This document shows positions 4,146 through 57,104 of a DNA stretch of 64,000 bases, piece after piece; the stretch's first letter is position 1; the number at the start of each line of letters is the position of its first letter. Location: assembly GCA_965222225.1 (NCBI GenBank), contig CBDCTK010000002.1:3648001-3712000 (forward strand), given 5' to 3'. Both the position numbers and the translations under genes were made by a program. Source of the DNA: Candidatus Poribacteria bacterium. Lineage in GTDB: Bacteria > Poribacteria > WGA-4E > JAJDTR01. The notes beneath the pieces were generated by a model. The model saw nothing but the letters and a program-made list of their open reading frames with translations. It made no database searches and had not been told where the DNA came from.

Positions 4146-4317
4146 AGGATTTCCTATCGCCATCGCTATCAAAGATCCCTATCGTACTAGGATTTCTATC
4201 GTGGTCGCTGGGGAATCGCTATCGCCCTCGTTGTTCACTCGGTTAATCTTAGTTGATTCTTATTCAGTCGCTTAATCTTCATAGAATCCTATCGCGTTCG
4301 CTATTCGCTCACTTGAT
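4146..4317 (-). repeat. nest of 5 or more copies of the 36-nt cryptic-hairpin element
   Basis: Minus strand shows complete copies at 4283-4317 and 4211-4247 plus split halves. Confidence 0.85.
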
Positions 4318-4857
4318 CTGTTCACCCTCCATTATCTCGGACCACAATTCCGATAACGCGGAAAATGGCGACGACGACTCTGCGGGTTCACGGCAGTTGC
4401 ATTCACCAATGTTGAGATTGGTGCCGCAACTAGCGCACAAACCTTTACATGACTCCGAGCAGAGCGGCCACTCCGGAATTTCAAGTATGAGCCCCTGGCG
4501 AGCATCTTCCGACAAATCTATCACATCGCCCGAATAGTGTCGCTCCCCAGCATCAATCAACCTCGGATCCATCTTCTCCGGGTCATCGACTTGGCAAAAT
4601 TGCAACTCCACCGCCGCTACAATTTCGGTTTGAAGCGATTCTATGCACCGGCGGCACTCAACCACAAGCGATGTCGAAAACTCCGCTTTTGTGTAGACAC
4701 TTTGGTTATGCCGTGAGAACTGAATATAACTATCAATCGGCGCAACAATCTTGAAATCCTCGCCTTCCAAAGCAAACTCTGAGGGCGACACTTGGAGTTC
4801 GCGGATGTCAAGATCGCCATCGGGAATCTCGTTGACAGGGAACTCTAACCCTTTCAT
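4309..4857 (-). CDS. yceD: DUF177/YceD family protein
   Basis: CRRC...LCSESCKGLCASCGTNLN motif; upstream of rpmF. Confidence 0.9.
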   Translation of the reverse strand: MKGLEFPVNEIPDGDLDIRELQVSPSEFALEGEDFKIVAPIDSYIQFSRHNQSVYTKAEFSTSLVVECRRCIESLQTEIVAAVELQFCQVDDPEKMDPRLIDAGERHYSGDVIDLSEDARQGLILEIPEWPLCSESCKGLCASCGTNLNIGECNCREPAESSSPFSALSELWSEIMEGEQIK

Positions 4858-10308: not shown

Positions 10309-10428
10309 ATTAAACGAGTGGATAGTGAGTGGGATTTTCTATCTGGATTAGCTATCGCCTTGGGATCTCTATCGCACTCGCTATCCGTTCGTTTGATGCA
10401 TCCGCTCAGTTGATCGGTAGAGATCCCC
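10309..10428. repeat. antiparallel nest of 36-nt elements
   Basis: Plus-strand copy split (10309-10330 and 10415-10428) by minus-strand copies, with an intact copy at 10362-10397. Confidence 0.85.
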
Positions 10429-17780: not shown

Positions 17781-18094
17781 CTTCTTTTGCTCCCTCCCCT
17801 ATCGGACTGAACTGTCACCGCACCCCGACTGTCATCACCTTGTTTATTGGACGAAACAAGCTGACGTTGGGTCTATTGAAAACAGATACAAGCTCCACAG
17901 GTGGCATGCTTTACAGGTATAGAGTGACTTGGTCTTGAAAGTGAATTGCCAACCGAGTAAGAATCTGATTCAGCCGTCTAGCAAACCGTGGTTTGATAGA
18001 CGGCTGAAGGCGACGCGAAACCTACGCTTTCTGCGTCAATACGCGCTTTCTGATGAGGGCATTTCATTCCTCATCGCTTTCCTCACCTCATCGT

Positions 18095-18219
18095 CCTGAT
18101 GCCGTTGGGTCATCCAGGCAATCATTGGTTCTGTCAGTGCCTGTGCGTTTGTAAATAGCACAGCGACGCTGAACAGTAGCACGCAACTTAGCGTGATATA
18201 CCCAAGTTTCTTTTTCATG
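18095..18219 (-). pseudogene. orphan 5' fragment of a TolB-like paralog
   Basis: MKKKLGYITLSCVLLFSVAVL...MIAWMTQRHQD matches the N-terminus of 24008-25051; upstream AAGCCCTGTAAAATCTA is also shared. Confidence 0.75.
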
Positions 18220-18387
18220 GTAAATCGCCTTTTCAAGTTGTGGAAGCCCTGTAAAATCTACGAACCTTTCAGTTGGCAAAGTAGAACATGCCGCTGGCTT
18301 GTTCAGAATATGCTACCAGCTTGTTTCGTGGCGATACAGTATTTGATTGAATTATCAAACCACTACCTTTGGTAGGCCGGTACTATA

Positions 18388-18505
18388 TACTCAGCGTCGC
18401 ATAAAACTGCGCTTTTTTTACAGCAGTTCGTCTGAAGCGCAACGTGAAAGTAGCAGTGGCAGTAGCAGGACAGCTCAAAAGCGGAATTTATGCCGTTGCC
18501 AAGTA
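18388..18505. mobile_element. MITE with TA target duplication (IS630-like)
   Basis: Imperfect TIRs TACTCAGCGTCGCATAAA / TACTTGGCAACGGCATAAA; an empty-site paralog at 20833-20880 shows a single TA. Confidence 0.8.
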
Positions 18506-18535
18506 TAAGAAGGTTCAAGCGTTAGGGAGGAAAGC

Positions 18536-19945
18536 CTATCGATGCACCTCGAATATGCTGTAGCCGTATGGCGGGAGCGGCAACTCCAGTGTTTTCTCCA
18601 CCTTTTGATGTTTCCCGCTAAAGATATCGACCAACTCCGTCTCCCAATCGAGATAAACCTCTATCATCGCATCTTCGCTCTGGAAGTTGAGCACTACGAG
18701 CAGCATCTCATTATCTGTAGTTGATGCGCGAAGGAATGCGTAGTATCGACCATCGTTGTTCGTAGGCAGCCGGCGTCTGGAACCCGTGGCGCAAAGTGCC
18801 GGATACTTCTGCCTGGCCTTCATAATCTCTTTGAGCTGTGATAGAAACCTCGTGGACCATATAGGTTCAAAGATACGGTCGCTGGCTACGAACAACTCAC
18901 CGACTGTCGCCAGCGACACCACTTCCAACAGCATCTGTGCCGGAGAGAGGTTTCCCGTCGTTTCCCCCATCACCCGCAAAGCCGGCCCTGACATGCCCCC
19001 CATTACCCCAGCCCATGTTACTCCGCCGGCTTTGACAACGCGGTCCCGGTACAGCCGCAGTTTAACCTCAATTCCTGTGGGATTGCCGGTTTCCAAGGCT
19101 AACCTGATGGCCTGCGCCCAACGCCGACCAACCCGCGAATCGCGGATTCCGTAGTCCTGTACGCTGTCATAGTGCCCGTCGGTAATCCACGGGACCGGGT
19201 CGCAGCGTATTCCGGCTCCTTCAGGAAGCACAAACGTATTTGGATATTCGTGGACCACGTCAGTAATCGTGCTGTTGTTCACCTCCCAAGTACAGTTGGT
19301 GTATTCAGGTACGGCGTCAACCATTATGCCGTCGACCCCTCTCTCCATCCAAAAGCGAACAACCCGCCTGCATTCCTCCTGCCACGACTCCTCTCCATAA
19401 TTAAACTGAGGCAAATCCTCATCGCCGGTACGGCCGCGCCATCTGACCCAATGGTACTTCCCTGCTCTCTCGCTGAATTGCCAACTACTTGAGTTTACCT
19501 CGACATCATTTAGGAAAAAAGGCACTTGGCTTCGATCCAGTTCGGCAGACTTGGTGTCGCTCCACACGAACCAGCGAGACTCTGGGCTGTCCACGCCGGC
19601 TTTCACATCGTCACAGGCCCGTATAAAGGGAGGAAACTCCGTGGCGGCGTAACCGAGGTTGAGAAAAGCCATGACGGCAATGTCTCTGTCGTGACACGCC
19701 GTAACGAGTTCATCAAAGTCATCCATGGTTCCAAGGGCGGGATCGACGGCATAGTAGTCGAGGACATCCAGCCCTGAGTACTGGATGCCTCCATGGTACG
19801 GGATGCCCATGCAAATAGCGTTAAAGCCCCACTCTTTGACCTCGTCGACCATTCCGATGATCTTTTTGAGCGTTCGGCCCTTGTGTTTGGGACTGGTAAA
19901 ATGCATTAGTGTAGCGTTTTCCCACCAACGGGGTTTCAAACTCAT
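18536..19945 (-). CDS. GH13 alpha-amylase-family glycosidase
   Basis: DYYAVDPALGTMDDFDEL, FWMERGVDGIMVDAV and C-terminal beta domain. Confidence 0.85.
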   Translation of the reverse strand: MSLKPRWWENATLMHFTSPKHKGRTLKKIIGMVDEVKEWGFNAICMGIPYHGGIQYSGLDVLDYYAVDPALGTMDDFDELVTACHDRDIAVMAFLNLGYAATEFPPFIRACDDVKAGVDSPESRWFVWSDTKSAELDRSQVPFFLNDVEVNSSSWQFSERAGKYHWVRWRGRTGDEDLPQFNYGEESWQEECRRVVRFWMERGVDGIMVDAVPEYTNCTWEVNNSTITDVVHEYPNTFVLPEGAGIRCDPVPWITDGHYDSVQDYGIRDSRVGRRWAQAIRLALETGNPTGIEVKLRLYRDRVVKAGGVTWAGVMGGMSGPALRVMGETTGNLSPAQMLLEVVSLATVGELFVASDRIFEPIWSTRFLSQLKEIMKARQKYPALCATGSRRRLPTNNDGRYYAFLRASTTDNEMLLVVLNFQSEDAMIEVYLDWETELVDIFSGKHQKVEKTLELPLPPYGYSIFEVHR

Positions 19946-20275
19946 ATGTGTACTCCCTCCCTAACGGGCGCCCAAATGGGCTCCGTCCGTGAATTTCCCA
20001 AAACGAATCTTCGTATCACGATTCATAACGTGGTCCTCAGTATACCTTGTTCTCTTCGCCGGTTAAATCAATGTGTGGTTTCTTGCACGGTATATCGCCA
20101 TAGGGCATCAAAGTGATGTACGGTAGCTTAGAAGAGCCGCCGACTCCTTCCCATTTCACCCACGGACTTCTGAGTCCCACTGCTCGCTCTGGGATGAGTC
20201 GGTAGACACTCAGGCTATTTTGCAAAAGATAACGTTCGATGAATTGCCAAGCTTCTTCTTTTGCAAAGTAGCTAA

Positions 20276-20460
20276 TACCATTTCGCTTGAATAATAGTGC
20301 ATATAATGTCAGAATTATACCGTTTACTTTCTCCGTAGGCGGGGCATCTTGCCCCGCCGACTTTGCGCGGAGACAAGGCGTCTTACTCCGCTCCTCGCAA
20401 GTTTCTTTACTTGATACTTGATCCACGTAATCAATGCACTTGCATTTTAGAGAAATGGTA
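20276..20460. mobile_element. MITE with TACCATTTC termini containing a GTAG REP
   Basis: TACCATTTC...GAAATGGTA; internal GTAGGCGGGGCATCTTGCCCCGCC. Confidence 0.65.
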
Positions 20461-20464
20461 TTAG

Positions 20465-20832
20465 CACTTGAGAAAGTCGATCATCACTGAAATCGGTAGG
20501 GCGGAGCGGTGTGCCAAGCAATTCGGAAAGAATATCCTGATGCTCAACCGCCCAATCCTCAACAGCCACTTTTCGGCGATCTCCTTCTGAAAGGACGTAG
20601 GCGATCCAACCGATGACCAATTGCCCAATTGATAGTTCTTGATGCAACCAGTGACGATTTATCGCCTCGTCAATCACATTATCAAGACCTAGATGCTGTT
20701 GTCGCGATATCAATAACGGAATGTCCTCAAGTCATTCGATGACGACTTCTTGATTGCGTTGAAATCGAGTAGTCATACTCTATCTCAACGTCTTACTTCA
20801 ACTTTTCAACTTCGCATTATGCGAACCGTAAG
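20465..20832 (-). mobile_element. IS1634-family transposase 5' remnant (DUF4277-like)
   Basis: DIPLL...LGLDNVID...LSIGQLVIGWIAYVLSEGD...DFSDDRL, with an internal stop. Confidence 0.75.
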
Positions 20833-20934
20833 CACTACCTTTGGTAGTCCGATACTATAAGAAGGTTCAACCGTTAGAGGTATTATAATGTACCTCCCTA
20901 ATACTACAACCGCATTCAGTGGCGAGGACCTCTG

Positions 20935-21140
20935 TAGGGGCGGGTTCACTCTATGACAGAAACCGATGTGAGGTCGGCATTGCGTTCTATAACAAGGGCG
21001 TCAGTACGCCCGCTATGGCGGAAACCCGCCCAGAACAAATTCGAGGTTTCTCCTTTGACAACGCGGAGTCAGTGCAATGGAGTGTGTATCTGCAATAAAC
21101 GCCGTGTTAGCAAGATCAAATCTGCACCCACAAACACACT
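20935..21140 (+). repeat. ~205-bp dispersed repeat, copy 1
   Basis: TAGGGGCGGGTT.ACTCTATGACAGAAACCGA...ACAAACACACTA; second copy at 23050-23256. Confidence 0.85.
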
Positions 21141-21329
21141 AATGTGTATAGATCCGGTTGTAGTACTAAGTTGTATCTTCCGGTCGCGGCTCAAGCGAAA
21201 CCGCGAGGTCTCAGAGGGTGTTTCAAAAGGTAAACTTGAAGCTAAGAAAGCACAGCGGCCTTGGGTATCGTAATCTGAAGCATTTCTCCCTGCGTGCGCA
21301 GAGAAATGCGGACGCGCAGACGCTGTTTA

Positions 21330-21489
21330 GAGCTTGTTTGAATAATGGGCGGCAAAGAATTTTTAGGCTATTGGAGGCTGGTGCGCAGTGCGCACCCTAC
21401 AGGATTTCGCAAGAAGAAGCCGAGTTTTCAAGAAGAAACGCCGTTTCAGGACAAATTGCTCTAACGGAAATGAATTTTCAAACAAGTTC
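21330..21489. mobile_element. IS5-family-like MITE
   Basis: TIRs GAGCTTGTTTGAA / TTCAAACAAGTTC with TTA flanks; contains a REP; lone matching end at ~22911-22923. Confidence 0.7.
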
Positions 21490-21518
21490 TTAGCACAGTA
21501 AATGTCAAAGAGCCTTTT

Positions 21519-22514
21519 CTATTCGCTCTTCTGCTTAAGCCAGCCCCATATTGCTCGGAGCTTGCCACCAGGGGAGACAGGATACCGAGCACGATCAAAC
21601 CAGGCAGGATTCTTGTCAGAGCCAGGAACTGCCGCTAGTCTGCGTTGCTTTTTCCCATCGGCATCCATAACGTAGATTTCATAGTTCCCATCCCGCTTGG
21701 AGTGGAAGGCGATACTTTTACCGTCAGGAGACCAGGCAGGAGACTCGTCCTTCGCGGGATCGTCTGTTAGTCTACGTTGATTTTTCCCATCGGCATCCAT
21801 AACGTAGATTTCCTCGTTCCCGTCTCGCTTGGAGTGGAAGGCGATACTCTTACCGTTAGGAGACCAGTCTGGATCCCGGTCCTTCGCGGGATTGTTTGTT
21901 AGCCTGTATTGATTCTTTCCATCGGCATCCATAGCGTAGATTTCACTGTTTCCATCCCGCTCGGAGTAGAAGACGATACTTTTACCGTTAGGAGACCAGT
22001 CTGGAGAACTGTCAGTCGCGGGATTGTTCGTTAGCCTGGTTTGATTGTTCCCATCGGCACCCATAACGTAGATTTCCTTGTTACCGTCCCGATCGGACCA
22101 GAAGGCGATCCTTTGAGCGTAAGGATGCCAGGCTGGATTGCCGTCACTCGGGGCATTGTCGGTTATCTGGCGTTGATTTTTCCCATCGGCATCCATAACG
22201 TAGATTTCAAAGTCCCCACCCCGACTGGAGTAAAAGGCGATACTTTTACCGTCAGGAGACCAGTCTGGATTTTGGTCGAAGGGCTCGTTGACTTCAACTT
22301 CAAAAAAGTCACCTCCCGTTACGTCGCGTTGATTCTCCCCATCGACATCCATAACGTAGATCCTCATACCCCACAAGATATCAAGATTGCCCTTGTCCCG
22401 AGAGGTCTGGAAGGCGATCTTTGCTTCTTCGCGCGCTTGTGCGGGTATAGATAGCGCAACGCCACTCAACACTAGGACGCAACTTAGCGCGATACGCATA
22501 AGTTTCTTTTTCAT
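21519..22514 (-). CDS. secreted TolB-like PD40-repeat protein
   Basis: Signal peptide; six PDWSPDGKSIAF repeats. Confidence 0.92.
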   Translation of the reverse strand: MKKKLMRIALSCVLVLSGVALSIPAQAREEAKIAFQTSRDKGNLDILWGMRIYVMDVDGENQRDVTGGDFFEVEVNEPFDQNPDWSPDGKSIAFYSSRGGDFEIYVMDADGKNQRQITDNAPSDGNPAWHPYAQRIAFWSDRDGNKEIYVMGADGNNQTRLTNNPATDSSPDWSPNGKSIVFYSERDGNSEIYAMDADGKNQYRLTNNPAKDRDPDWSPNGKSIAFHSKRDGNEEIYVMDADGKNQRRLTDDPAKDESPAWSPDGKSIAFHSKRDGNYEIYVMDADGKKQRRLAAVPGSDKNPAWFDRARYPVSPGGKLRAIWGWLKQKSE

Positions 22515-23049
22515 CGTAAACCTCCTTGGAGCTCTGATGCCTTACATGAAAACAGTGACGGTTCTTTTCGCTTGGTCTCAATACGTCGCTTCGTTCCTAC
22601 TCGACCAGCGTTCGCTAATTGACAAAGAATACTAGACGGTTAGGGTAACATTTTTTGTAACTGTTTAGTTCAGTTTATGGAACTGGAAAAAGAGCACCGC
22701 ATTATGGCAATCGCACCTGATTCTAGAGCTGGAGAGATCTTCTTTGCAATCACTAAATTACTGATTTTCCTCGTTCTCTTTACACGAGCATCAAAAGCCC
22801 CAGCGGGCGACACGTGTATAGAAACGTGGATTCACCACACACCCCAAGCCCCAGAGGGGCGACATGTGCATAGAAACTCAAATGGCCGAAAATGGCTCTC
22901 CCCCCTATTATTCAAACAAGCTCTAAGCAGTTACCATTTTTTAAAACCACAGAGGCACGAAGACACGGAGTTTTTTCTTTTCTCTGTGTTGCTTCTGTGC
23001 CTTCGCGGTAAAAATGAATTAACTCAATGATTCATACTAGAACCGCATT

Positions 23050-23256
23050 TAGGGGCGGGTTTACTCTATGACAGAAACCGAATGTCAGGTGGGCATTGCG
23101 TGTCATAACAAGGGCGTCAATACACCCGATATGGCGGAAACCCGCCCAAGGCAGATTTGGGTTTCTCCTTTGAGAACGCCGAGTCAGTGCAATGAAGTGT
23201 GTATCTGCAATGAACGCCCGGTTGGCAAGACTAAATCTGTCCCTACAAACACACTA
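23050..23256 (+). repeat. ~205-bp dispersed repeat, copy 2
   Basis: Aligns by eye with 20935-21140. Confidence 0.85.
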
Positions 23257-23849
23257 GTGGTCAACCAAATTAGTTTATTGGGTTATTTCCGCTTTCCTCG
23301 GGCCCGCCCACCAAGGCGCCTCATTCCCTCCCCCTGACGGTTCAGGGGGCAGACAATTCTGGGAAAGCATAGCATTCTGGGTATTTCAAGTTGCGACTCT
23401 TCAAGTCCCCCTTTTCATGAAGATTAACAATTTAATTCGGTAATTTCTTGGTGAAGCCCGGTAGGTGCGGTTAGGAAACCGGACCTACCGGGCCTGGGGG
23501 AAATATAGAATTACCGAAATATTTATTTAAACTTCATCCAAAGGGGGATTTAGGGGAATTTTTGAAATGTGAATCTCCTCGTCAAATCCCCCTAACCGCC
23601 CTTTACGAAAGGGTGGAACAAAAGTGTCCACCCCATTCATCATGAGTCCGTAAAGGGGGTAACATCTTGCATCCTCCTGGTGACAGATTTCTAGTTCTGT
23701 TTAAGAATAAACTGGCGGGATGCAAGGTTTCAGAGCGCGATTAAATTTAAAAGATACAACTTCCTGATAGGGGACACAAAAAACGACTCAAATCCAGAGT
23801 TGGACTGAATTTGAGCCATTTGAAAAAACTATTGGTTTTCAGCTTATCG

Positions 23850-23998
23850 TGTATTGGTCAAGATGATGAGTTACACCCCCATTTGGATGCCCGACTTCAG
23901 TCGGGGGCGATGGCCGTCTCGACTGAAGTCAAGCATCCAGCGTCAAGAGACTGTGCGTATTTAACGGCGCACTGCCAATCATCTTGTTGACCAATACA
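23850..23998. mobile_element. MITE-like element
   Basis: Termini GTATTGGTCAAGATGAT / ATCATCTTGTTGACCAATAC; internal palindrome CCCGACTTCAGTCGGG. Confidence 0.6.
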
Positions 23999-24007
23999 GT
24001 TTCTAGC

Positions 24008-25051
24008 TTATCGACTGCTCTTGATTTCTCCCCATGAGGTTGTCAGCTTGCCAGCAGGGGAGACAGATGTGGGCGGCGGGGCAAAAGCAGGATCAAAGTA
24101 GACACCATTTAACTCCCCTGCGTCCACTATCAGCTCGCTCGCCTCGGAAGTACCGTCGGCATTCGCAATCCAGGTATGGCCCCCGCCGTTGATCAAGATC
24201 CTACCGTCAGGAGTCCAGTCGCTCGGCCAGCCACCTCCAGGTCCATCGGGGAAGGCTTCTTTGATCATCGCACTCAGGTTTCGTTCATTGCCGCCATCGG
24301 CATCCATAACCCAGGTTTGCAGCCCATCAGCTCGATTGCTCCAGAAGGCGATACTTTTACCGTCAGGAGACCAGACTGGATCCCGGTCAGTGCCGAGACT
24401 GCCTGTTAGCTTGATTTGATTGCTTCCATCGGCATCCATAACCCAGATATCATCGTTCCCGCCCTGCCCGGAGGAGAAGACGATACGACCGTCAGGCCCC
24501 CAGTCTGGCTGTACGTTTCCGATCCCTTCTTCACTGTCTGTTAGTTCACGTCGATTGCTACCATCAATATTTACACTGACGATTTGACGGAATTCATCAG
24601 GCGCATAGGTCTCGAAGCAGACACTTTTGCCGTCAGGAGAGAACGATGGGCCCAGGTCACCCACAGTCGGACTGTCCGTTACCTTGCGTAGATTGCTACC
24701 ATCGACGTTTATAAGCCAGATCTCAGCCAGCCAACCGTCGTGAATCCTATCGCTGGAAAAGGCGATAGTTTTACCGTCAGGAGACCATGCTGGATAGCCG
24801 TCCATGGCCACATTGTCTGTTAGCCTTCGTTCGTTACTCCCGTCAGCATTCGCAACGTAGATGTCGGAGTCCTTATCTGATACCGCAATGTCCTGATTCC
24901 GATTGGTCATCCAGGCAATCATTTGTGCGTCTATACATAGCACAGCGACGCTGAACAGTAGCACGCAACTTAGCGCGATACACGTAGCTTTCGTTCCCAT
25001 TTGCATTCTCATGATAAACTCCTTCTTAAGTTTTGGATTCAAGTTTTGCAA
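24008..25051 (-). CDS. secreted TolB-like PD40-repeat protein (true start probably ~25000-25013)
   Basis: PAWSPDGKTIAF repeats; tail VSPAGKLTTSWGEIKSSR. Confidence 0.9.
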   Translation of the reverse strand: MQNLNPKLKKEFIMRMQMGTKATCIALSCVLLFSVAVLCIDAQMIAWMTNRNQDIAVSDKDSDIYVANADGSNERRLTDNVAMDGYPAWSPDGKTIAFSSDRIHDGWLAEIWLINVDGSNLRKVTDSPTVGDLGPSFSPDGKSVCFETYAPDEFRQIVSVNIDGSNRRELTDSEEGIGNVQPDWGPDGRIVFSSGQGGNDDIWVMDADGSNQIKLTGSLGTDRDPVWSPDGKSIAFWSNRADGLQTWVMDADGGNERNLSAMIKEAFPDGPGGGWPSDWTPDGRILINGGGHTWIANADGTSEASELIVDAGELNGVYFDPAFAPPPTSVSPAGKLTTSWGEIKSSR

Positions 25052-25787
25052 GCCCTGTAAAATCTAAGCGTCAACATTGCAGGACTTCTGCACTAAAGAG
25101 GTCGATTCTACGACCTGCACAATGGTAACTATTCACCGCAGACACATTCTCACATAAATTATGCCGTACTCTTAGCCCAACTGTCAAGAAAATTCCAGCT
25201 TTAGATGGGAGCTGTCCATGTGTGACCGTTCCATAGACCTAATCTGCTAGTCTCACGGGGTTCAGGGGCAACAATCCAGTAAAATCAGGGGTTCAGTTCC
25301 AACTTGACATACCCCTCAAACCCGCAGCCGGGTTGACACGTTCAAACACCGTTTTATGGGAATTTGCCAAAACGGATGTTTTGGGGACGCAAAACAAGCG
25401 TCTTTTGGGCCAAGATCCGCCCCGGGTGTGGATTGATGCGGTTTGAGGGTGGAAGATCGTATGTCAACAAAATTGTGGATTTAACGGTCTCGTCCATGTC
25501 TCTCGTTATACCAGTTCCAGATCCAAATACCTCTAACCCTCCTTGGAGGATCAGTGATGGACGGAACTGCTTTCGTATTACTGCCGGCTGACGGCTCATC
25601 CTTGGCTCAGGAGTTCACCGGAGTAATTCATGTCAATGTAATTTAGGACGCGTCACTAAACCCGCCTTTGTACAAAAGTATAATACTGAGGTGCGTCAGG
25701 CCAAACGCACCTGATTAAGGTATAAGAAACTAAGGCCATCAAATCAAGATGGAACAACGCATCATTTCTTGTAGGACGGGCATTGCG

Positions 25788-25969
25788 ATCAAATGAGCGA
25801 ATAGCGATGCGATAGAGATCCCACCAGCCTATGAAAGCGCCAGCGGCGATCAAGCGAGCGAATAGCGAGTGCGATAGAGTTCCTCAGGTGTATAGCGATA
25901 CCAAGTCACCCTAAACCAAAGCCTCAGCGCGGGATCAAACGAGTGAACAACGAGTGCGATAGAGATCCC
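25788..25969 (+). repeat. three 35-36-nt elements, each inserted in a REP
   Basis: Copies at 25788-25822, 25849-25884 and 25934-25969. Confidence 0.9.
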
Positions 25970-26381
25970 GACAGGCTACTTGATCTCAGAAACACTGGCG
26001 ACTTTCTCCGATGCACTGGGGTGGGTGAGACACCAGGTCCAGTTTGCGGAGACGACTTTTTCAATGGTCAACCAAAAGACCAGATGGTTAAAATCTCCCC
26101 CGCTTTTCTTCAACGCTTGATTGACGCTTTCTGTTTTCGCGCTTGATTGTACAAAGTCGAGCTAAGTACGTATTACCTCCTACGCCTTTGTCTCTTTCTA
26201 TGAATCATGGAGAGTAGGGAGCGCAGATCTGTGTTCCCTACTCTCCATTCACCAATGTTTTTCGGAATTAGTAGCTTGTAGCTTTTAGACTGACGACAAA
26301 CATAAAACTTGGTACCCTGTCGTAAATCTTTTCGTCACACGTAGATGTCCATAGTGACTATTCTTCTCGTAGGAGTTTGCT

Positions 26382-27236
26382 ATGGACATTTTGAATCTTA
26401 TGAAAGAGTTTCCAAATCAAGAATCTTGTCTCAGATTTATAGAGGAAAAACGTTGGAAGGACGGTGTTTGCTGTATCCACTGTGGCAGTGAAAAAGTTGG
26501 ACGCAAGAACAAAAACGACATTACTACTGGTTGGAATTGCTACGATTGTGAATCTAGCTTTTCGGCTACAGCAGGAACCATCTTCCATGGTACCAAGATA
26601 CCTCTCCAGAAATGGTTTTTGGCTATCTCAATTCTTTCCAATGCCAAGAAAAGCATATCGAGTTGTCAGCTTGCTCGTGACTTGGACATGAATCAAAAGT
26701 CCGCTTGGTATATGGCAATGCGCCTCCGTGAGAAAATGAGTGATAGTGATGAATTGCTGAAAGGGATAGTTGAAGCGGACGAAACCTATGTCGGCGGCAA
26801 ACCCAGAGCAAAATCTAAGAGAGGTAGAGGCACAAATAAATCTCCCGTCATCGGCGTAGTCGAGAGAGGCGGTCGGGTGGTTGCTAAATTCATGAAGGTT
26901 CTATCTGGTGAAAATATCAGAGAATTCATCCTTAGCAATGTCTCACCCGATGAGTCTATTCTTATGACTGATGAATTTCGCTCTTACAATAGTCTGGACG
27001 AAGATATCGAAAGACATGTTATCCATCACCAAGAGAGATATGTTTCTGAGGACGGCGTAACTCACACCAACACCATCGAGTCGTTTTGGGCTTGTGTCAA
27101 GAGGTCATTCTACGGAACGCATCATCACTACAGCAAGAAGTGGCTGCCACTGTATATCATGGAGTCTTGCTGGAAATATAATCGCAGAAAAGATGATGAG
27201 ATTTTCATAAGATTTTTTGATGAATGCTTCACCTGA
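26382..27236 (+). mobile_element. IS1595-family transposase
   Basis: Zinc ribbon CIHC...CYDC; VEADETYVGGK, TDEFRSY and HTNTIESFW motifs; element ends not determined. Confidence 0.93.
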
Positions 27237-27887
27237 GCCACATGAATTGTTTGGCTATCGGTATATTCTGTCAACGACAACATCATGGTGTGCTGAAAAT
27301 CCCATAGTGTTGGAAATTAAAATCCCGCAGATAACCCGCAATGCTCCCGCGAGCATGTACAAACGCTTGGTCAACATGATATGCCTCCATTTCTCTCTTA
27401 TAGAGATGTATTTTAGTGTGAATCAAGATTCCGAACACTGTCTAAAGTTATTGTACATTAAGAAGAGAAAAGCAAGCAAATCGACCAAAAAGCAGTTAAC
27501 TACTAAGTCCCATGTTTTTTCTTGTCACAAGCCAATGTGTTTACCGATTTTGGTCTCTTCTCTTTTCATCGCACGTCAACTCCGGCGCGAAGCTCATAGG
27601 TTGGGTTGAACGGAAATCCATGGCATATCATACACAGAGAGAGGAGTTGCGAGGTTTCATTTCGCCCAAAAACTCCGAAATTCGAGTGAAACCCAACACA
27701 TCGTCGCAAACAATCGACAATCATCAAGTTCTCGATTGCTCCGCATGTCGATAATTCACTTCGCATAGTTCCACGTTTTTGATATAATCTGCGCGAAATT
27801 TCAGAATAGCCCGCCAATGCCAAAGGACGCTTCCCATCCCTTCGTCGACCAACAAACGTCTTGTTTACCTAAAGCGACGATAAAAGA

Positions 27888-28264
27888 ATGACGCCTGAAC
27901 AGCGATATCAGTTTGACACCATCGGATCCTTCACTTGGAGGACGTTCTCACACCTGAGGAGTTGCGGCGCGCTTAGGAAGCTGTCGACCGTTATATCAAC
28001 TCGCCACCCGAAAAACTGCCAGTCGGCTTTAGTTTCAGGAATCGGGCACAGCACAAACACTATCTGCGCGGGTTCGCATTCGACCAAGCGCTCGAACACT
28101 TGACGATTCATCCATCAGTTTGGCAAATTATAAAAGAGTTCACCGGAAATAAACCGTGTCTCGCCCGAGCGAACCTGATTTGCGATACACACGAGCATGC
28201 CCCGCTACATCTCCACAACGGTCCAGGTAAAACCATGGGACTCGGCGTCAACAAGGGAGGTTAA
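27888..28264 (+). pseudogene. phytanoyl-CoA dioxygenase (PhyH)-family pseudogene
   Basis: MTPEQRYQFDTIG, then a frameshift to LHLEDVLTPEELRRA*EAVDRY...FAFDQALEHLTIHP...PLHLH; truncated. Confidence 0.75.
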
Positions 28265-28734
28265 TGATGAACTCATGCGATCCGACCATCGAAGCTGAGG
28301 TCATGAGAGTGCATGATGAGTGGCAGGGGACATTCCGCGGACGAGACATGCAGGCTTGGGAAAGGACATACCATTTCCCGCACTATCGATTGGGTCTGGC
28401 AAGCGGAGAGATGCGTGTGCTGCCTGAACCGGGCACTCAGGACCCCGAATCATTCACACGCCTTGCAGCGAGGGGCTGGCATTATAGCAAGTGGACACGA
28501 CGAAAAATCATCCATGCGTCCGACACAAAAGTGCACGTGAATGTTCAATTCACGAGATGCCGAAAAGATCGTACTCCCATAGAAAGTTTTGACGCGCTCT
28601 ACATTTTGACCAAAGTAGACGGAAGATGGGGTGTTAAGATGCGGTCGAGTTACGCAGGGAAAGAGATTCTAAACCGTCAACTCCCGCGGCGATACCTGTT
28701 CTTTCCCACAAGGTCGGCACCCATCTCAAAATAG
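28264..28734 (+). CDS. NTF2/SnoaL-like hypothetical protein
   Basis: YHFPHYRL...ALYILTKVDGRWGVKMRSS pattern; RBS GGAGG. Confidence 0.7.
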   Translation: MMNSCDPTIEAEVMRVHDEWQGTFRGRDMQAWERTYHFPHYRLGLASGEMRVLPEPGTQDPESFTRLAARGWHYSKWTRRKIIHASDTKVHVNVQFTRCRKDRTPIESFDALYILTKVDGRWGVKMRSSYAGKEILNRQLPRRYLFFPTRSAPISK

Positions 28735-28970
28735 CCCGTACTTTCCGACTGGTGAACGCACGTTGGGAATTGCATTTACATTCTTCAAGATTCTAGTCTA
28801 TAATATCAATAATATCAATACAAAAACCGTGACATCTAGGTTGCGCCCTATGCCCAAGGCTACTTCAATTTGTGGCACAAAGTTGCGGTTAACAGTCAAG
28901 TTAATGGCTTACCCAAATCCGAATCTGTAGTTAATCATAACGAACCATCTTAACGTTCTATAAGGAGATT

Positions 28971-29351
28971 TTGCCAGTGGAATACGAATTTCATCATGTA
29001 CACCTTCGTTGCGAAGATCTGGATGCGGCTATCGATTTTTATGAAAATGTGCTCAATGGGAAGATTACCGAGCGTTTGGAACTTGGTGGTATGCTTATTG
29101 TTCGCATGGAGGTAGGCGGACAGAGACTCTTTCTTTCCCCAAAGTTTGGCGATATTGATGTCGAACCCACGAGCGGAAACGCGCGTTGGGGCGTTTACCA
29201 ACTTGCGTTTCTCGTGGATGACATTGATACCGCGGTCGAGGAACTCAAAGCAAGAGGGGCACAAGCTCAAAATATCAAACCGTCCGGAAATCCAATCGCC
29301 TTCTTTGCGGGACCCGACAATGTGCAGATCGAACTGATGCAGCGCTCCTAG
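28971..29351 (+). CDS. VOC/glyoxalase family protein
   Basis: HHVHLRCEDLDAAIDFY...QLAFLVDDID...GPDNVQIEL. Confidence 0.9.
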   Translation: MPVEYEFHHVHLRCEDLDAAIDFYENVLNGKITERLELGGMLIVRMEVGGQRLFLSPKFGDIDVEPTSGNARWGVYQLAFLVDDIDTAVEELKARGAQAQNIKPSGNPIAFFAGPDNVQIELMQRS

Positions 29352-29385
29352 TTTGCACAGATGTCAACACACCTTACGGCTCCAT

Positions 29386-30066
29386 ATGAAATTCAGTGAA
29401 CTCTTCTACACCATTCAGGGCGAAGGAAAATTCGTCGGCGTGCCATCTGTATTTTTCAGGACAAGCTATTGCAACCTTAGGTGTATTTGGTGTGATACTG
29501 CTTATACGAGTTGGACGCCGGAGAACAAAGACATAACTGTCGATGTAGCTGTCAAGGCTATCACTCAGTATGAGTGCAGGCACATCGTCATCACGGGTGG
29601 AGAACCGTTTATCCAAGTCAAGGAACTAACGCAACTGTGTCAAGAGCTGAATCGACGAGGGCATCACATTACCGTGGAGACGAATGCTACCGTCTTTGCG
29701 CCTGTTGCAGCCAACCTAATATCGATGAGCCCGAAACTCCGAAACTCCAACCCCACCCCCGACAACCGGTTCTTTACGCGTCATGAACGAGGACGCATCT
29801 GTTCCGATGTCATACGCGAATTTCTCGGTCAATACGAGTGCCAAGTCAAGTTCGTTGTTGATTGTCCCGAAGACCTTGAGGAAATTAAGACCTTGCAAGC
29901 CGAAATCCCCATTCCGGCGGAGACTATTTTACTCATGCCCCAGGGCATGACTCCCGAAGAATTACAGCCCAAACAGGAATGGCTGGTGGAGATTTGTAAG
30001 GAAGAGGGATACCGCTATTCGCCGCGGGTACACGTGGATATCTGGGGGAACAAGCGCGGCGTGTAA
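29386..30066 (+). CDS. queE: 7-carboxy-7-deazaguanine synthase
   Basis: TIQGEG, CNLRCIWCDT, ITGGEP and VETN radical-SAM motifs. Confidence 0.93.
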   Translation: MKFSELFYTIQGEGKFVGVPSVFFRTSYCNLRCIWCDTAYTSWTPENKDITVDVAVKAITQYECRHIVITGGEPFIQVKELTQLCQELNRRGHHITVETNATVFAPVAANLISMSPKLRNSNPTPDNRFFTRHERGRICSDVIREFLGQYECQVKFVVDCPEDLEEIKTLQAEIPIPAETILLMPQGMTPEELQPKQEWLVEICKEEGYRYSPRVHVDIWGNKRGV

Positions 30067-30125
30067 TGCTAGAAGCGGAGATTTGCAGGTCGACTCGATT
30101 CGGCAATCGGGGGAAGTTGCGATAA

Positions 30126-30518
30126 ATGGCAGAGTTCAAAATGCTACAGGGATGTTATCGACGGATACTGCTTTTTCTGTTTGCAATCGCCGTCATCCTT
30201 CTAGCGGCGTGCTTTATCTTCTACCAGCAAGTTGGCGGTATTGAAGGATCGCGATTCTGGATGGCGGGACGGGCGCTAGGCGAAGTGGAAGAGCATCTGT
30301 TGAAAAATCGGCCCGACGGTATCTCAAAAACGGATGTTGAACGCCGGTTTGAAAAGGTTCAAAACGCAACCTCCGAGTGGCGTGTGGACTTAGTGGAACT
30401 CCACCGTGTGCTCAAGGATTATCAAGACCGATTTCAGAACACAAAGCCGTCAACTCCCGAGACTGTACAATTCCTCACGATTCTTGAGGCTACAGTTCCC
30501 CCTGAAGACAGTAACTAA
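30126..30518 (+). CDS. membrane-anchored hypothetical protein
   Basis: N-terminal TM segment; co-oriented with queE. Confidence 0.65.
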   Translation: MAEFKMLQGCYRRILLFLFAIAVILLAACFIFYQQVGGIEGSRFWMAGRALGEVEEHLLKNRPDGISKTDVERRFEKVQNATSEWRVDLVELHRVLKDYQDRFQNTKPSTPETVQFLTILEATVPPEDSN

Positions 30519-30593
30519 CCTCCAATTTTGCGTCTCTAGCTTTCTAGGTTGCGCTCCCTTGATCCTTCGAAAACGTGGTTTGGTTAAAGTTAC

Positions 30594-31310
30594 TTGATTG
30601 ACAAAATCCTACACACCGCATCGCGCTGTTTTGGCGAGGGACCGCTAACCCGACAGGATTTTCGGCTGATAACCCGCCTCTATTCCTCTCTACCCCTAGC
30701 CGCACAACTGCAAGTGTGGGCACGCCTGATTTGCTTGCAACCTGTACTGAGAGCGATTGAGCAACACGTTCCTCTTTCCACCGAGCGGCTGGTCGACTTA
30801 GGGAGTGGTTACGGACTAGTGAGCGCTCTCACCGCGCTGCGACGGGAAGGAATGATTTTGGGGGTTGAAGCCTCGCCCTCAAGACTCGCGATTGCGCGGC
30901 AAGCCACGGCCGGACACATCCCAAATGTCACCTTTCAGCACGAGGACATCGCACAAATCTCCCTTCCCCCAAGCGACGCCATCCTGTTAATCGATGTTTT
31001 ATGCCTTTTTGCCGATGACGCCCAAGCGCATGTTCTAGCGAATTGCGCGAATGCGCTGTGTCCGGGCGGCGTTCTCCTCATCAAGGACAATACGACGACC
31101 CCTCGGTGGAAGTACCGATACGCAAATCTGGAGGAAAGAGTTAAGCTTTGGTTGGGGACCTATGGAGTCAGAGCGCAGCTGCAACCTAACTATCGCGCTC
31201 CCGAGGCATGGCGGCAGCTTATCACGAACGCAAACCTAAAAATTGAAGAGGAACGTTACATCGGATCGATTGCCCCTTATCCTGGGGTAATCTATCTCTG
31301 CCGAAAATAG
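30594..31310 (+). CDS. class I SAM-dependent methyltransferase
   Basis: VDLGSGYG and LCPGGVLLI motifs. Confidence 0.85.
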   Translation: MIDKILHTASRCFGEGPLTRQDFRLITRLYSSLPLAAQLQVWARLICLQPVLRAIEQHVPLSTERLVDLGSGYGLVSALTALRREGMILGVEASPSRLAIARQATAGHIPNVTFQHEDIAQISLPPSDAILLIDVLCLFADDAQAHVLANCANALCPGGVLLIKDNTTTPRWKYRYANLEERVKLWLGTYGVRAQLQPNYRAPEAWRQLITNANLKIEEERYIGSIAPYPGVIYLCRK

Positions 31311-31313
31311 CAT

Positions 31314-32417
31314 CTACCCTGTTGCGGCGCCATTTCGAAATCTCCGCACGAACTCCCGAATCTGTCGAGCGGTCAAATCATCACTCAAGTCGGAATCTAC
31401 GAGGCCTTCCAACGCACGAGCCAATCTAGCCTCCGCATCTCCCCACGCTTTGAGTAGCATTCTGTTTTTCTCCCTTCTCGGCTGAGCCGCCGCCGCCAAC
31501 AACCGATGGACAACTGAAAGGTAGAAGAGGATATTGTGGTAATCTAGCTGCGCGAAAACGTCTTCCTCAGAGATGCCTGACCGGTATGTGACAGCCCGGC
31601 TTGCGTAAGCGCCAATGACATCTCGATTCAGCAAGTTGATAAAGTTTCCACCCTCACGGTTTGCGCCCAGGCTATTGAAGAACTGAACGATTCGCCTTTC
31701 ACTCCAATCCCACCCCACACTCCCAAAATCCACGAAGGTGCTTTTTCCTGCGTCCATCACGATGTTGCGTGCATTATAGTCGAGCGTGCCCAGCGTCGCC
31801 GAGTTCCTATGGAGGGCTTGAGAGAATTTCGACCAAAACTTGTCAAGATCCGATGATTCCGTCTCGCCGATCGACTGAGCTAGATAGCCCATCGTTTTTC
31901 GACCTTGGTCTAGCATCTCCTGCATCCTCTGACGCAGATAGGTCGGATAGTCCAGCGGGTAAACATACGGCGCGAAATCCGTTTGGCGGTCGGCGAAACT
32001 TTTCTCTATTTGACAAAATTCACCAAGAGCGCTGATTATCACTTCCTTCAGCGACTCAAGGGGCGTTGTTTGAGCCAAATCGTCAAGCGTTGATTCGCCG
32101 CGCCAATCCAACAGCAGGCAGAAATCCGGATCCGATTGCCACACAATCTCTGGGACACTGCAACCGGCGTCGCGCAGCGTCGAAAGCACTGCCGATTCTA
32201 CCTCAAATGGCGTAAACGCCGAATCCCCGATGGGGCGTGTGATAAAGTGCTGTTTGAGCAGGTAGCTCTGTCCATTAACTATCACCCGCCAGAGGCTGTT
32301 TCTCTCGACGCTGCCGTGCTTTATCGGCGCGACGTGCAGGCATTCCGGCGACTTACCAAATAGATCCGCAACCTTTGGAATAATACGCGGCAATTCAGGG
32401 AACATAGGCGTGAGCAC
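31314..32417 (-). CDS. APH/choline-kinase-like phosphotransferase
   Basis: YLLK, LDYNARNI and FVDFG kinase-fold motifs. Confidence 0.75.
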   Translation of the reverse strand: MLTPMFPELPRIIPKVADLFGKSPECLHVAPIKHGSVERNSLWRVIVNGQSYLLKQHFITRPIGDSAFTPFEVESAVLSTLRDAGCSVPEIVWQSDPDFCLLLDWRGESTLDDLAQTTPLESLKEVIISALGEFCQIEKSFADRQTDFAPYVYPLDYPTYLRQRMQEMLDQGRKTMGYLAQSIGETESSDLDKFWSKFSQALHRNSATLGTLDYNARNIVMDAGKSTFVDFGSVGWDWSERRIVQFFNSLGANREGGNFINLLNRDVIGAYASRAVTYRSGISEEDVFAQLDYHNILFYLSVVHRLLAAAAQPRREKNRMLLKAWGDAEARLARALEGLVDSDLSDDLTARQIREFVRRFRNGAATG

Positions 32418-32748
32418 CCAGTCGATCGAATCTGTTGCGGAGCAGTATACCGCAAGTCAGCCCATCGTTCCAACCCTATCGTGTTTAGCTAGCCAAACTG
32501 CCTGCGACTAGTGTAGGGGACTGCCCCTGTGCCGTCCCGGAATTGTAGGGTGGGATCGGCGATTGTCAAATCGTCGAATTCCCTTCATCTCTTACCGCCC
32601 ATCATCCTTCCCTTCTTCCACCCTTCCATCCTTCCTCATCCCCTGCGATTCGATGCAATTGCCCTTGTTCGCATGTATTGTCTATCGCATCTGGAGGCCG
32701 GATGTGATATAATTAACCGCTAATTTTTGTTGAAATCGGGAGCATAAC

Positions 32749-35937: not shown

Positions 35938-36049
35938 AAGTCTTCTGGCTGTCATTTTGGTCGATTTAAACCCTATTGAGAATCATCACTGTAAATACTT
36001 TTGCTTTTTTATAGAGATTCAGGAAGTAAAAAGGAGCTATCGGTAACAA

Positions 36050-37318: not shown

Positions 37319-37339
37319 GTAGGGTGGGCACTGCCCACC
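37319..37339 (+). repeat. GTAG-type REP (GTAGGGTGGGCACTGCCCACC family)
   Basis: Copies or variants also at 37720, 39937, 39992, 46767, 47359, 55064, 25771 and ~21378 (minus strand). Confidence 0.9.
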
Positions 37340-37372
37340 AGCCTTTTTTCCATGCAATATCCCCTCTAGGCG

Positions 37373-37441
37373 ATCAAGCGAACGAATAGATCAACCGAGT
37401 GAATAGCGAGGACGATAGAGATCCCAGTGCGATAGAGATCC
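37373..37441 (+). repeat. 36-nt element inserted into another copy
   Basis: Outer 37373-37389 plus 37426-37441; inner 37390-37425. Confidence 0.9.
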
Positions 37442-37915
37442 ATGAAGGTTTATAGAACCGCAGAAACCCAACGCATCTAAGCCCCAGCGCGGGCGATAGA
37501 AGTCCCACAGGTGACAACTTGCGTTAATCTAGGAAATCCTTGTAGGGAATAAAGATCGTTATTCCCCTTATGATGTCCCGAATCAACGTGCATCGGAAGG
37601 CAGACATCGTTTATGGCAGCGCAATTCACCCCATGCCTACTGTAGGAGCGAGTTTCACTCGCGACAGAAGGTCGCGCCACCTAGAGGAGGTCTCTGCGGA
37701 ACTCTATCGCGCTCCTATGGTAGGGTGGGCATTGCCCACCATTCCCAAACGCGTTGATCGCGCCGCAAACCAACTCAAACTTCATTGTGATTCCACCGCA
37801 GATCGGTTTGTAGCAGCAATCTTCGACTATAAAATCGCCCATTTCCCTTTTTCAGTGCACCTCATGAATAAAACTCTGACCTACTCATACAACAAGGAGA
37901 AACGAAATACACAAA

Positions 37916-39913: not shown

Positions 39914-40131
39914 CTCATGCGGTGGTGTCCTGCTTTGTAGGGTGCGCATTGCGCACCAGCCTTTGTAAGCCCCAATGACGCGACAGTTGTTGTAGGGTAG
40001 GCATCGCCCACCAGCGTTTGATTTTATAGGGTGGGATTTGCGATTACAAATCGCAGATTTCTTCTCTTACCGCCCATCAGCCTTTGGTTTTGTAGCATAA
40101 ACATTCCCCACTAACAACGCCGTGTCGCCTA

Positions 40132-46686: not shown

Positions 46687-47375
46687 GATCTCGTCTCGTA
46701 ACTATCATTCACACTTGCGCCGTAAGCCGGATTGTGATATACTTAACGTGTGTAATGTGTCTAATTGTAGGGTGGGCACTGCCCACCATCTCCGACTACT
46801 AACCGTACGTATCCCATGGTTTCCTGATATTGATTAGGACTACGCAAACGTGAAACTCCTAGCCCACCGCTGGGCTCACGACGTGGCGATGCGTAAAGGT
46901 GTAACGATACTGTTGCGAATATTTTCCGTGAAAGACTTCTGGCGATGGACTGTTACACGAAGTTTACTGGGTTGCCTGTTACCCCAAAAAAATCCAATGT
47001 TTGTGACATTTTGTGATATTTTGTGACAATTCGTGACATCGCAAGAATCAAACACATTAAGACGGCGTAGATTGGGCTGTACGAACAACCTCCTCGTCCC
47101 AACCATTTTGTATGGATAGATGCCAACCGTGTTTTTCATACCTACTTTCCCGTGCAATTCATACAGAACTTGCTAAGAAGCCGGTTATAGCGTGTATTTT
47201 CGCGCCTTTTTTCCCGTAAAAGTTTCCCAATTCTGCATATTACGTACGAAGAGTATGAAATGCTGTGATGATCCCGTAGAATGCAGCCACTTGTAGTTTT
47301 TCTCTTTTGCGTTCTAGCGGAGCAGAATGTGGTTCAGGCAAACCTGCAGGTCGTTTTTGTAGGGTGCGCACTGCA

Positions 47376-47411
47376 ATCAAGCGAGTGGATAGCGAGTGCG
47401 ATAGCCATCTT
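47376..47411 (+). repeat. 36-nt element inserted in a REP arm
   Basis: GTAGGGTGCGCACTGCA[ATCAAGCGAGTGGATAGCGAGTGCGATAGCCATCTT]ACCAGCCT. Confidence 0.9.
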
Positions 47412-50755: not shown

Positions 50756-51352
50756 CACATAAGGCATTTAGATGTAGGGTTGGATTGGCGATCTCCTCTC
50801 TTATTGCCGCCCAAGAAACCTATTTCCCCTGACAATTTGTGACATCACAGCGCCGACGGATGCCAATTGTCTCACATTCCACCGTTTGGAACGTTTCCGA
50901 TTATTGGAATATTGAGTTGCTCAACACACGTAGCTTGCATGAAGATTACTCCAAAATACTCTCACCTTCGAAGATTTTCGCTTCTGCATTCGTCGCGCAT
51001 TGAACTTTATCCGATGTGGCATTATACTTTACGCTGGTGGCCTCGAGACGCCTCTCTGATCCGCGTGAAAAGCATCACTCAAGGGAAGGCTCCCCAATTC
51101 GGTGAGCGCACTTTAGCGCACTTTCGTGAAACGGGGCATACCATGCTTGAAGCGGCGTCCGGCAAGCATTGGAGCCCGATTTTCGATACTGTGTGATTAG
51201 TGCGCTACCCTTACCCTAAAAAAGTGGCGCCAGAAAATACTGAAAAAACTGAGGAAACTGAAAAAAGCGAAATATCAGAACGACGCGGCAACAATATGAA
51301 CTGTTTCCCTTAAGTGGTCTTCTCGCTAAGTATTTGACACATATTGAAACCG

Positions 51353-51388
51353 ATTAACTGAGTGGATAGCGAAGGCGATAGAGATCCC
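51353..51388 (+). repeat. solo 36-nt element
   Basis: ATTAACTGAGTGGATAGCGAAGGCGATAGAGATCCC. Confidence 0.9.
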
Positions 51389-52028
51389 ATTCATTGCCCG
51401 TCTTACGGTTTCACGGTTTTCACTGACCACTAATCACTAGCCACTAAACACTTACGAAATGGTATAAGAAACTCCCTACGGCAATAGAACGGCATTGATA
51501 AGCATCGGGCATGGGTTCCGCTAACTGAGTAAGGTCGGATCGACGATCATCAAATCGTCGATTTCCCCTCTTTTTGCCCGTCACCTTCTTTTACCTAGAA
51601 CTGCCGCTATTGCCATTCGTACCATGACAAAACCTCATCGTGGCCAAACTTTTTTTCTTGTTAGCATTTTGTTAGCATTAGGATTCCCGGGAACCCGCAC
51701 TACCAAAGGACACTCCCATTTTAGAAAATGCTAACACGCCGCTTAAATCGACGCTCCGTTAGCATCTCTTTTCACGTTGTCGGTTCGCTGATTCGCACCA
51801 TTGTAGGGGACGATTGTGGATTTTCAATCAACCTTATGTGACCATCAAATCAACATGGAATCCGTGTTCGACAGCCGTCTTATGACCGGAAATGGCTGTA
51901 CTATCTATTAGTCAAACAGGCGCTTAATTCACCCCATTAACGCACTGTCATTTTGGAGAAATGGTATAACCTAATCACTCCTGCGGAGACACTGTCACCC
52001 AAACTTCACCAATAAACTAGGACGCACC

Positions 52029-57016: not shown

Positions 57017-57104
57017 TGACCGATCAACTGAGTGGTCAACGAAGGCGATAGTAAAGCTCGATAGAAGTCCCATAGTGGCCGCGATCGAGTTCCTATAGAG
57101 ATCC
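57000..57104 (+). repeat. nest of 3 or more 36-nt elements overlapping the symporter stop
   Basis: Outer ATCAAGCGAATGGATAATGACCG...ATAGAGATCC; inner copy starts at 57023. Confidence 0.85.

Follow-up and report, generated by a model that had tools for sequence, protein, structure and literature searches.

How does a repeat of about 36 nucleotides come to lie, time after time, inside the hairpins of other repeats, with no duplicated target beside it? The question is raised by a 64,000-nt stretch of DNA from Candidatus Poribacteria bacterium (assembly GCA_965222225.1, contig CBDCTK010000002.1, positions 3,648,001 to 3,712,000 of the forward strand; hereafter the window), in which three copies of such an element interrupt a repetitive extragenic palindromic (REP) sequence and its companion hairpins between positions 25771 and 25976. 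An earlier note on this DNA had proposed that the element targets REP hairpins, makes no target site duplication (TSD) and costs the host about one base, and had suggested capture at nicks or breaks in structured DNA. The 36-nt repeat is very probably a mobile mini-element: it has sharp ends and a covarying hairpin, is found filled and empty at orthologous sites, nests in itself, obeys a junction rule, is biased in its orientation to the REP tag, and is intergenic and restricted to certain lineages. The reading favoured overall, that of a non-coding, non-autonomous and very small mobile DNA element moved through a single-stranded hairpin, is by a slight balance of judgement the probable one.

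The three founding copies lie on the plus strand, at the positions previously claimed for them. Copy 1 occupies 25787-25821 (25787..25822 with position 37 of the element included; nhmmer E=6e-08) in the 3' arm of a GTAG-tagged REP at 25771..25829 (plus strand), whose intact form is found at 39937-39957; this copy lacks one internal base of the alignment consensus and is thus 35 nt long. Copies 2 and 3 interrupt an untagged G+C hairpin that normally comes next after the GTAG REP and is found without an insert near 22795 and 22846. Copy 2 (25848-25883, or 25848..25884 with position 37; E=1.6e-09) lies at the 3' end of this hairpin, and copy 3 (25933-25968, or 25933..25969; E=1.3e-08) at the same type of site in a second copy of it. 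A duplicated host word was found at none of the six junctions. When position 37 is assigned to the element, one host base is lost at copies 1 and 3 and about three at copy 2; when it is assigned to the host, none is lost at copies 1 and 3 and about two at copy 2, so that the loss of about one base given earlier is a fair average. The block is not genic and lies between a beta-propeller repeat gene and an insertion sequence of the IS1595 family. From 25785 to 25976, host repeat and three inserts together, it recurs as an arrangement in sister genomes, matching many places there at 78-85% identity, so that the three copies do not count as independent evidence.

Ends and hairpin of the element

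An nhmmer-type hidden Markov model (HMM), built from six window copies, was searched against the 5.70 Mb genome and returned 1394 matches, including 832 at E<=0.01, 528 of full length and 487 of exactly 36 nt, the last comprising 383 distinct sequences. The ends are sharp: in the left flank information content is below 0.6 bit, no position there exceeding 0.56 bit; it reaches 1.6-2.0 bits at position 1 and drops after position 37. Positions 2, 3 and 35 are invariant in all 487 copies, and the 5' end reads GATC in 452 of them and AATC in 30. Positions 36-37 are both pyrimidines in 445/487 copies and in every target class; because this holds regardless of the target, position 37 is part of the element, which is best described as 37 nt long with the form R-ATC ... 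GATC-Y-Y. It consists of a 5' arm starting with GATC, a hairpin, and a 13-base tail that ends in GATC and two pyrimidines. No terminal inverted repeats extend beyond the 4-base GATC, and no longer or larger parent element with the same ends was found. GATC is also the second most avoided palindromic 4-mer genome-wide, with an observed/expected ratio of 0.55 (GGCC comes first, at 0.34); it is kept at both element ends despite this avoidance, and 1338 of the 18912 GATC sites lie inside element matches.

In the hairpin, a tandem G-A/G-A mismatch divides the stem into two 2-bp segments, and the loop has five bases. Its variable positions pair 7-23, 8-22, 11-19 and 12-18, with a mutual information of 0.45-1.08 bits. 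Among the 383 distinct copies, 94.6% of cells are paired (81.1% Watson-Crick and 13.5% G.T), compared with a mean of 63.4% in 500 shuffles and at most 57% in controls with slid partners. Similarly, an alignment across genomes of 66 distinct copies, nine of them window copies and the others taken from loci in further genomes of three genera, is 95.1% paired against 65.5% in shuffles, none of the 500 shuffles being as high; both partners vary in each of the four pairs, and controls with slid partners remain at or below 62%. G-A stands opposite G-A between the stem halves in 337/383 copies. Cells with G.T (207 of 1532) far outnumber those with A.C (26), which indicates that folding takes place on the strand given here. 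The pattern read backwards had no match in any genome searched, against 601 forward matches here. Only 60 of 829 matches fall in long open frames where 648 were expected (gene calls were crude, being stop-to-stop frames of at least 150 codons), and the element is thus intergenic. With Rfam, a tRNA was the sole match across the window, and the interval 25700-26050 had none at E<=1.

Strong conservation and covariation, together with the retention of an avoided GATC at both ends, are also what a conserved functional REP module evolved in place, e.g., a protein-binding site, would show. That the element is such an immobile module is extremely improbable, however, in view of its presence and absence at orthologous sites, its nesting and the unrelated contexts in which it lies, and most genera of this order with REPs and Y1 genes lack it.

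Junctions, targets and orientation

An exactly anchored empty paralog was found for 114 of the 487 copies, and alignments of the joined flanks agree with the junctions so obtained. Stricter anchors left 61 scorable copies: in 10, element positions 2-37 stand in place of two bases after a G, in seven, one base after a G is replaced, and three are clean insertions; the other 41 are spread over many junction classes, a spread that may be due to substitutions between old paralogs. Comparisons of paralogs carry much noise, and relatives do not count as independent samples. The element replaces two to three target bases (G-C-N), or equivalently one to two after a G, and no TSD was seen in any comparison of paralogs or orthologs, in agreement with the three window copies.

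Orthologous sites give the cleaner view of the same exchange. The GTAG REP just 3' of hisS (37319..37339, plus strand) is empty here and filled in sister species, with different stem variants at two loci (L020 and L024); the REP is nested at two further loci (L021 and L023) and occupied by a second element family at two more (L019 and L029). The empty form reads G-C-A at the stem-loop junction, where the filled form has the 37-nt element instead, and in the next hairpin G-C-G is swapped for the element likewise. A second orthologous site is empty in three species (L020, L021 and L023), full in one (L019) and holds a remnant here, namely the 3' 13 nt of the element at 37493..37505 (plus strand, hand-counted). 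One species pair has an outer copy without and with an inner copy, the latter replacing G-C. The loss of two bases (C-G) in self-nests, which the earlier note had also reported, is borne out in both paralogs and orthologs. A self-nest of this kind lies in the window at 37372..37441 (plus strand), where the outer copy is split into 37372-37388 and 37426-37441 around a full inner copy at 37389-37425; the inner match covers HMM positions 1-36 and the outer right half HMM positions 21-36. A degenerate copy at 57022..57057 (plus strand, HMM 1-30) is likewise nested in another copy.

An internal contrast is provided by the neighbouring insertion sequence of the IS1595 family at 26255..27511 (plus strand; Pfam DDE_Tnp_IS1595, 1.2e-36), which is separate from the element. 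Contigs from four other public runs with near-identical DNA (X3, X4, X7 and X10) were compared over 25400-45300. These contigs were short and repeats mapped across one another, and of the insertions in this interval only the absence of the insertion sequence came out clearly. The insertion sequence is absent in all four, and the joint of 26254 to 27512 shares eight bases; it is therefore a recent, polymorphic DDE insertion with a classic duplication. The earlier contention that the 36-nt element does not behave like a DDE transposon stands, as it has no duplication, replaces one to three bases and lacks long terminal inverted repeats.

Clustering of the 14+14 flanking bases gave 226 flank contexts, of which 191 are singletons. 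The largest target classes are a first position inside the element itself (58 copies), the 3' end of the untagged hairpin (52), a first REP position (37), a second REP family (21), a second REP position (18) and a second position inside the element (16); self-nesting takes place at three fixed element positions altogether. About ten more GTAG-tagged REP families are hit, usually 4-5 bases past the tag, and each target class has its own constant junction. A GTAG within 12 nt upstream on the same strand accompanies 157/487 copies, compared with 816/20000 random intergenic positions (4.1%) and 5.9% of control positions that follow a G; per copy this is an enrichment of some 5- to 8-fold, and per flank cluster of some 4- to 5-fold. 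The claim that REPs are the target thus holds as an enrichment over random intergenic DNA and fails as an exclusive rule, other small repeats and one IS3-like gene being hit as well. The mirror orientation to GTAG was found in just 12/487 copies, and because REP stems are palindromic, this bias of 157:12 shows that recognition is asymmetric. With regard to the stem, many insertions lie within an arm and not in the loop, and in a simple in-loop test the flanks pair around the insert in 6.2% of cases versus 2.5%, which is weakly positive.

Orientation relative to the flanking genes shows no link to transcription (258 copies co-oriented and 234 opposed). By local GC skew, 567/829 element copies lie on the C-rich strand, and in empty main GTAG REPs the tagged strand is the locally C-rich one in 119/160 cases. 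The strand bias of REPs may be connected with replication; the curve of GC skew itself turns several times.

These targets and junctions bear on the proposal of the earlier note, in which repair enzymes would ligate short element copies into nicks or breaks at sites of hairpin or cruciform formation, with a few bases lost. The small losses of one to three bases fit such a capture at breaks or nicks, as do the missing duplication, the hairpin nature of the targets and the fact that no dedicated enzyme was found. It fits poorly with constant ends and a fixed length in 487 copies, with the covarying hairpin, with the 157:12 bias that persists even where the local target is palindromic, and with identical positions reused across many REP families and two genera; furthermore, exact fragments of 36-37 nt would still need a specific nuclease. 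Capture at breaks is thus judged unlikely, the sharpness of the ends and the specificity for one strand speaking rather for an enzyme that works on hairpins in single-stranded DNA.

A further question is how many copies were placed by insertion at all, as the element might be mostly a passenger, with a few ancient insertions multiplied by the RAYT-driven spread of REPs and by gene conversion, and now largely immobile. A single variant accounts for 24 copies of identical sequence, most of them at the same REP site, and the 37 copies of the first REP site comprise 17 distinct sequences; these counts, the constant junction of each target class and the many sister-genome matches of the 25785-25976 block are in keeping with it. 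Some copies certainly stem from hitch-hiking in REP units. Hitch-hiking cannot account for the 226 diverse contexts with 191 singletons, nor the nests at three internal positions and the orthologous outer copy with and without its inner copy, nor a single orthologous REP that holds two stem variants and another element family in different species, nor the insertion within the IS3-like gene; in addition, REP arms of about 9 nt are generally short for homologous conversion. A largely immobile passenger is accordingly regarded as improbable, on a par with capture at breaks.

The IS3-like site (contig 2, 2517037-2517072) holds an element copy in an apparent IS3-like transposase, within its first frame as read by eye and shortly before an A run. 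The site is also filled in one genome of a second genus (L149 of genome G027), so that the element could pass from one lineage to another aboard an insertion sequence. A tRNA reading of this conserved filled site was rejected by ARAGORN.

Further copies in the window are located at 47375..47411 (plus strand, in the 3' arm of a GTAG REP), at 51352..51388 (plus strand) and at 10363..10398 (minus strand), and two more lie within 4213..4318 on the minus strand (4213-4248 and 4283-4318).

Distribution and the search for a moving enzyme

A pattern search that allowed up to two mismatches yielded the 601 copies here and 438-988 in nine other genomes of the genus, whose members are sponge symbionts. 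In a second genus, which belongs to another family, four closed genomes have 20-35 copies each, scattered over the chromosome, most of them in a single REP family and again at the REP position used here. A scan of the phylum found a match in 19/176 genomes and none for the reversed pattern. Outside the two genera, 1-18 copies were found on a few small contigs of fragmented assemblies (g6 and g9); these sporadic matches, and three copies in genome G010, may be binning carry-over. The viral contigs searched had no match.

That elements too small to code number about 600 in a genome and retain a covarying hairpin implies that some host activity must read and move a 37-base hairpin with single-bond precision. 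The general reading, that of a mobile, non-autonomous mini-element whose ends are defined by an enzyme, whose hairpin must be kept for propagation and which inserts strand-specifically in place of two to three bases, is held with high confidence; the mechanism itself is held with low confidence. In the proposed course of events, a host-encoded enzyme acting on single-stranded DNA would recognise the hairpin on the strand given here, and the element would enter as a unit of fixed length, in a strand-specific manner, swapping two to three target bases (G-C-N). Its favoured sites would be fixed positions in GTAG REPs, in the accompanying untagged hairpin and in its own sequence, the last at three positions, and part of the copy number would come from riding in REP units as those multiply. 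Movement in trans through a single-stranded hairpin intermediate is given about as much credence as doubt.

The best known candidates for such an enzyme would be the HUH/Y1 nucleases of the IS200 and REP-associated tyrosine transposase (RAYT) type, whose genes stand next to REPs that the element targets. HUH nucleases, as single-strand enzymes, are consistent with the strand specificity, with the hairpin, with the absence of duplication and with the link to GTAG. Genes with a Y1_Tnp domain (IS200/RAYT-type) are present in 10/10 genomes of the genus and 4/4 of the second genus. An intact RAYT-like Y1 gene on contig 2 (3080255-3080752) has inverted REP units on either side, and element copies lie within these units. 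Element copies were found at both ends of 76 frames, and a Pfam scan of 19 of the 76, mainly those with flanking copies in opposite orientation, returned Y1_Tnp as the only DNA-mobilising enzyme. Another genus was the only one to show classical IS200-type genes, at about 125 bits. It is nevertheless doubtful that the moving enzyme is a Y1/RAYT-type protein, for the reasons gathered below.

A route through RNA, in which a hairpin RNA would be copied into a nicked target by a reverse transcriptase, would account for pairs that are G.U-compatible on one strand only; target-primed reverse transcription is generally known to give small target deletions, and parts of the region are contained in RNA runs. 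The search for RVT_1 found only a weak match here, of 27.5 bits, and none in three genomes with 471-611 copies (G006, G007 and G009); moreover, orientation is independent of the flanking genes, neither a 5' truncation pattern nor tails were seen, and Rfam gave no match. An RNA-mediated route is therefore considered highly unlikely. The weak reverse-transcriptase-like match lies in a 679-residue open frame (contig 2, 4500547-4501089), and similar weak matches occur in frames of 628-695 residues in five sister genomes and of 655 residues in the second genus.

Several observations weigh against the favoured reading of a mini-element moved through a single-stranded hairpin. By nearest-neighbour energy the fold is weak (-1.6 kcal/mol as DNA), being equalled or bettered by 179 of 200 shuffles; support for the hairpin is evolutionary, and a protein partner would be implied. 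Only 48 of the 226 flank clusters have a GTAG nearby. The skew bias is common to empty REPs and hence uninformative about the element specifically, and the 24 identical copies and the recurring block mean that hitch-hiking inflates the counts. With respect to the enzyme, Y1_Tnp is also encoded in 25/31 genomes of genera that do not have the element, and orthologs of the intact RAYT-like gene are found in element-free genera (3/3 genomes of g6, plus g3 and g9), while none was found in two genomes that carry 33 and 34 copies (G021 and G027). The distribution of the intact RAYT-like gene thus does not match that of the element. Searches by Y1, by RVT_1, by flanking genes and by phyletic pattern tied no enzyme to the element. 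Finally, the chemistry of HUH enzymes does not match what is seen here, where one to three bases are replaced and only a G is constant: the known HUH 'peel and paste' insertion deletes no target base and uses a fixed target word of 4-5 bases. The base loss, the want of a fixed target word and the phyletic test are thus the points at which HUH nucleases do not fit.

The element is not the only guest of these REPs. A second mini-element family, labelled E-B, is about 35-41 nt long, starts with GATC and has a 9-bp hairpin that looks covarying and a pyrimidine-rich tail. It is unrelated to the 36-nt element and occupies the apex of GTAG REPs, at the same REP position; the genome has 101 matches at E<=1. 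In the window, E-B (family D19) was found in a GTAG REP apex at 32554..32594 (plus strand, hand-counted), in a REP at 40035..40069 (plus strand, hand-counted), in a REP-like hairpin at 51538..51573 (plus strand, end approximate) and at about 55107-55143. Together, the two families might form a class of 'GATC-tagged' hairpin mini-transposons that parasitise REPs and integrate by an undescribed single-strand 'replace' reaction, with the same chemistry behind the small dispersed repeats (SDRs) of cyanobacteria, a suggestion that is tentative and rather unlikely to hold as a whole.

The surroundings of the block contain other repeats. A different repeat of about 115 nt at 26054-26170 has hundreds of matches in five sister genomes at 82-90% identity. 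Upstream, several paralogous genes at 15800-25100 carry 132-nt tandem repeat units (families D1-D4 and D7), and the one paralog that was scanned (24008-25051) has PD40/WD40-like beta-propeller repeats.

Comparison with known systems

Insertion sequences of the IS200/IS605 type have two different subterminal hairpins, and their hairpin ends are recognised as single strands; they insert 3' of a fixed word of 4-5 bases without duplication and without target loss. The absence of duplication is common to both, whereas the element has one hairpin, requires only a constant G and removes target bases; with one hairpin and no target word, it is not an IS200/IS605 derivative. Similarly, it is non-autonomous and repeated as miniature inverted-repeat transposable elements (MITEs) are, but it has no inverted repeats beyond GATC, no duplication and no parent with the same ends, and it is 3-10 times smaller. 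Lacking inverted repeats and duplication, it is not a MITE. A literature search, narrow in that it was directed at Poribacteria REPs, found no printed description of the element.

REPs and REPINs combine a tag and a hairpin and are tied to RAYT (Y1 HUH) genes (PMC3733652, PMC6006769). The element shares with them a short tag and hairpin, an intergenic and strand-specific placement, hundreds of copies and the company of repeat-flanked Y1 genes. It differs in its tag, which is GATC and neither GTAG nor CGTC, in being a guest inside REPs, and in that the intact RAYT-like gene has a phyletic pattern that mismatches it; with the wrong tag, it is not a REP. REPs are known to be targets of insertion sequences (PMC3733652). 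The element also shows how guests add layer upon layer to REP hairpins, a point of relevance to REP annotation and modelling. If the proposal made above for the two families is true, the element is a parasite of REPs, which are themselves parasites or domesticated elements.

The closest known things are the SDRs of cyanobacteria, which the element resembles in every feature examined while being unrelated in host, target and size. SDR1-8 of heterocyst-forming cyanobacteria are reportedly 21-27 nt long and are said to go into one another and into repeats of other kinds; a hairpin with compensatory changes is likewise said to be common to several unrelated SDR families, the mechanism being given as unknown. 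The likeness lies in a tiny, non-coding and highly repeated unit of less than about 40 nt with sharp ends, in precise insertion without duplication as seen in filled and empty orthologous and paralogous sites, in nesting in repeats and in itself, and in a compensated hairpin within the element. The differences lie in the host (Poribacteria versus Nostocaceae), in the greater length (36-37 nt versus 21-27 nt) and in the replacement of one to three target bases. The target differs as well: the element goes to GTAG REPs and G-C-N, not to the HIP1 octamer, which occurs 116 times here. For SDR5, insertion precisely between the third and fourth base of this octamer is described in one paper (PMC4390886), and its function is termed unknown as of 2026 in another (PMC13756078). 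A further source records no SDR-like repeat outside Nostocaceae (PMC5861425).

SDRs are the only described parallel and were thought to be confined to one family; a second, apparently unrelated instance now stands in a distant phylum. Of the closed genomes of this phylum, over 100 have no copy, four have tens and ten have hundreds, up to nearly 1000, and near-identical strains are present in several public runs; the question of mechanism is now open to comparative genomics and to simple oligonucleotide biochemistry. If a shared 'replace' chemistry were true, it would also explain the cyanobacterial SDRs, unsolved since 2008.

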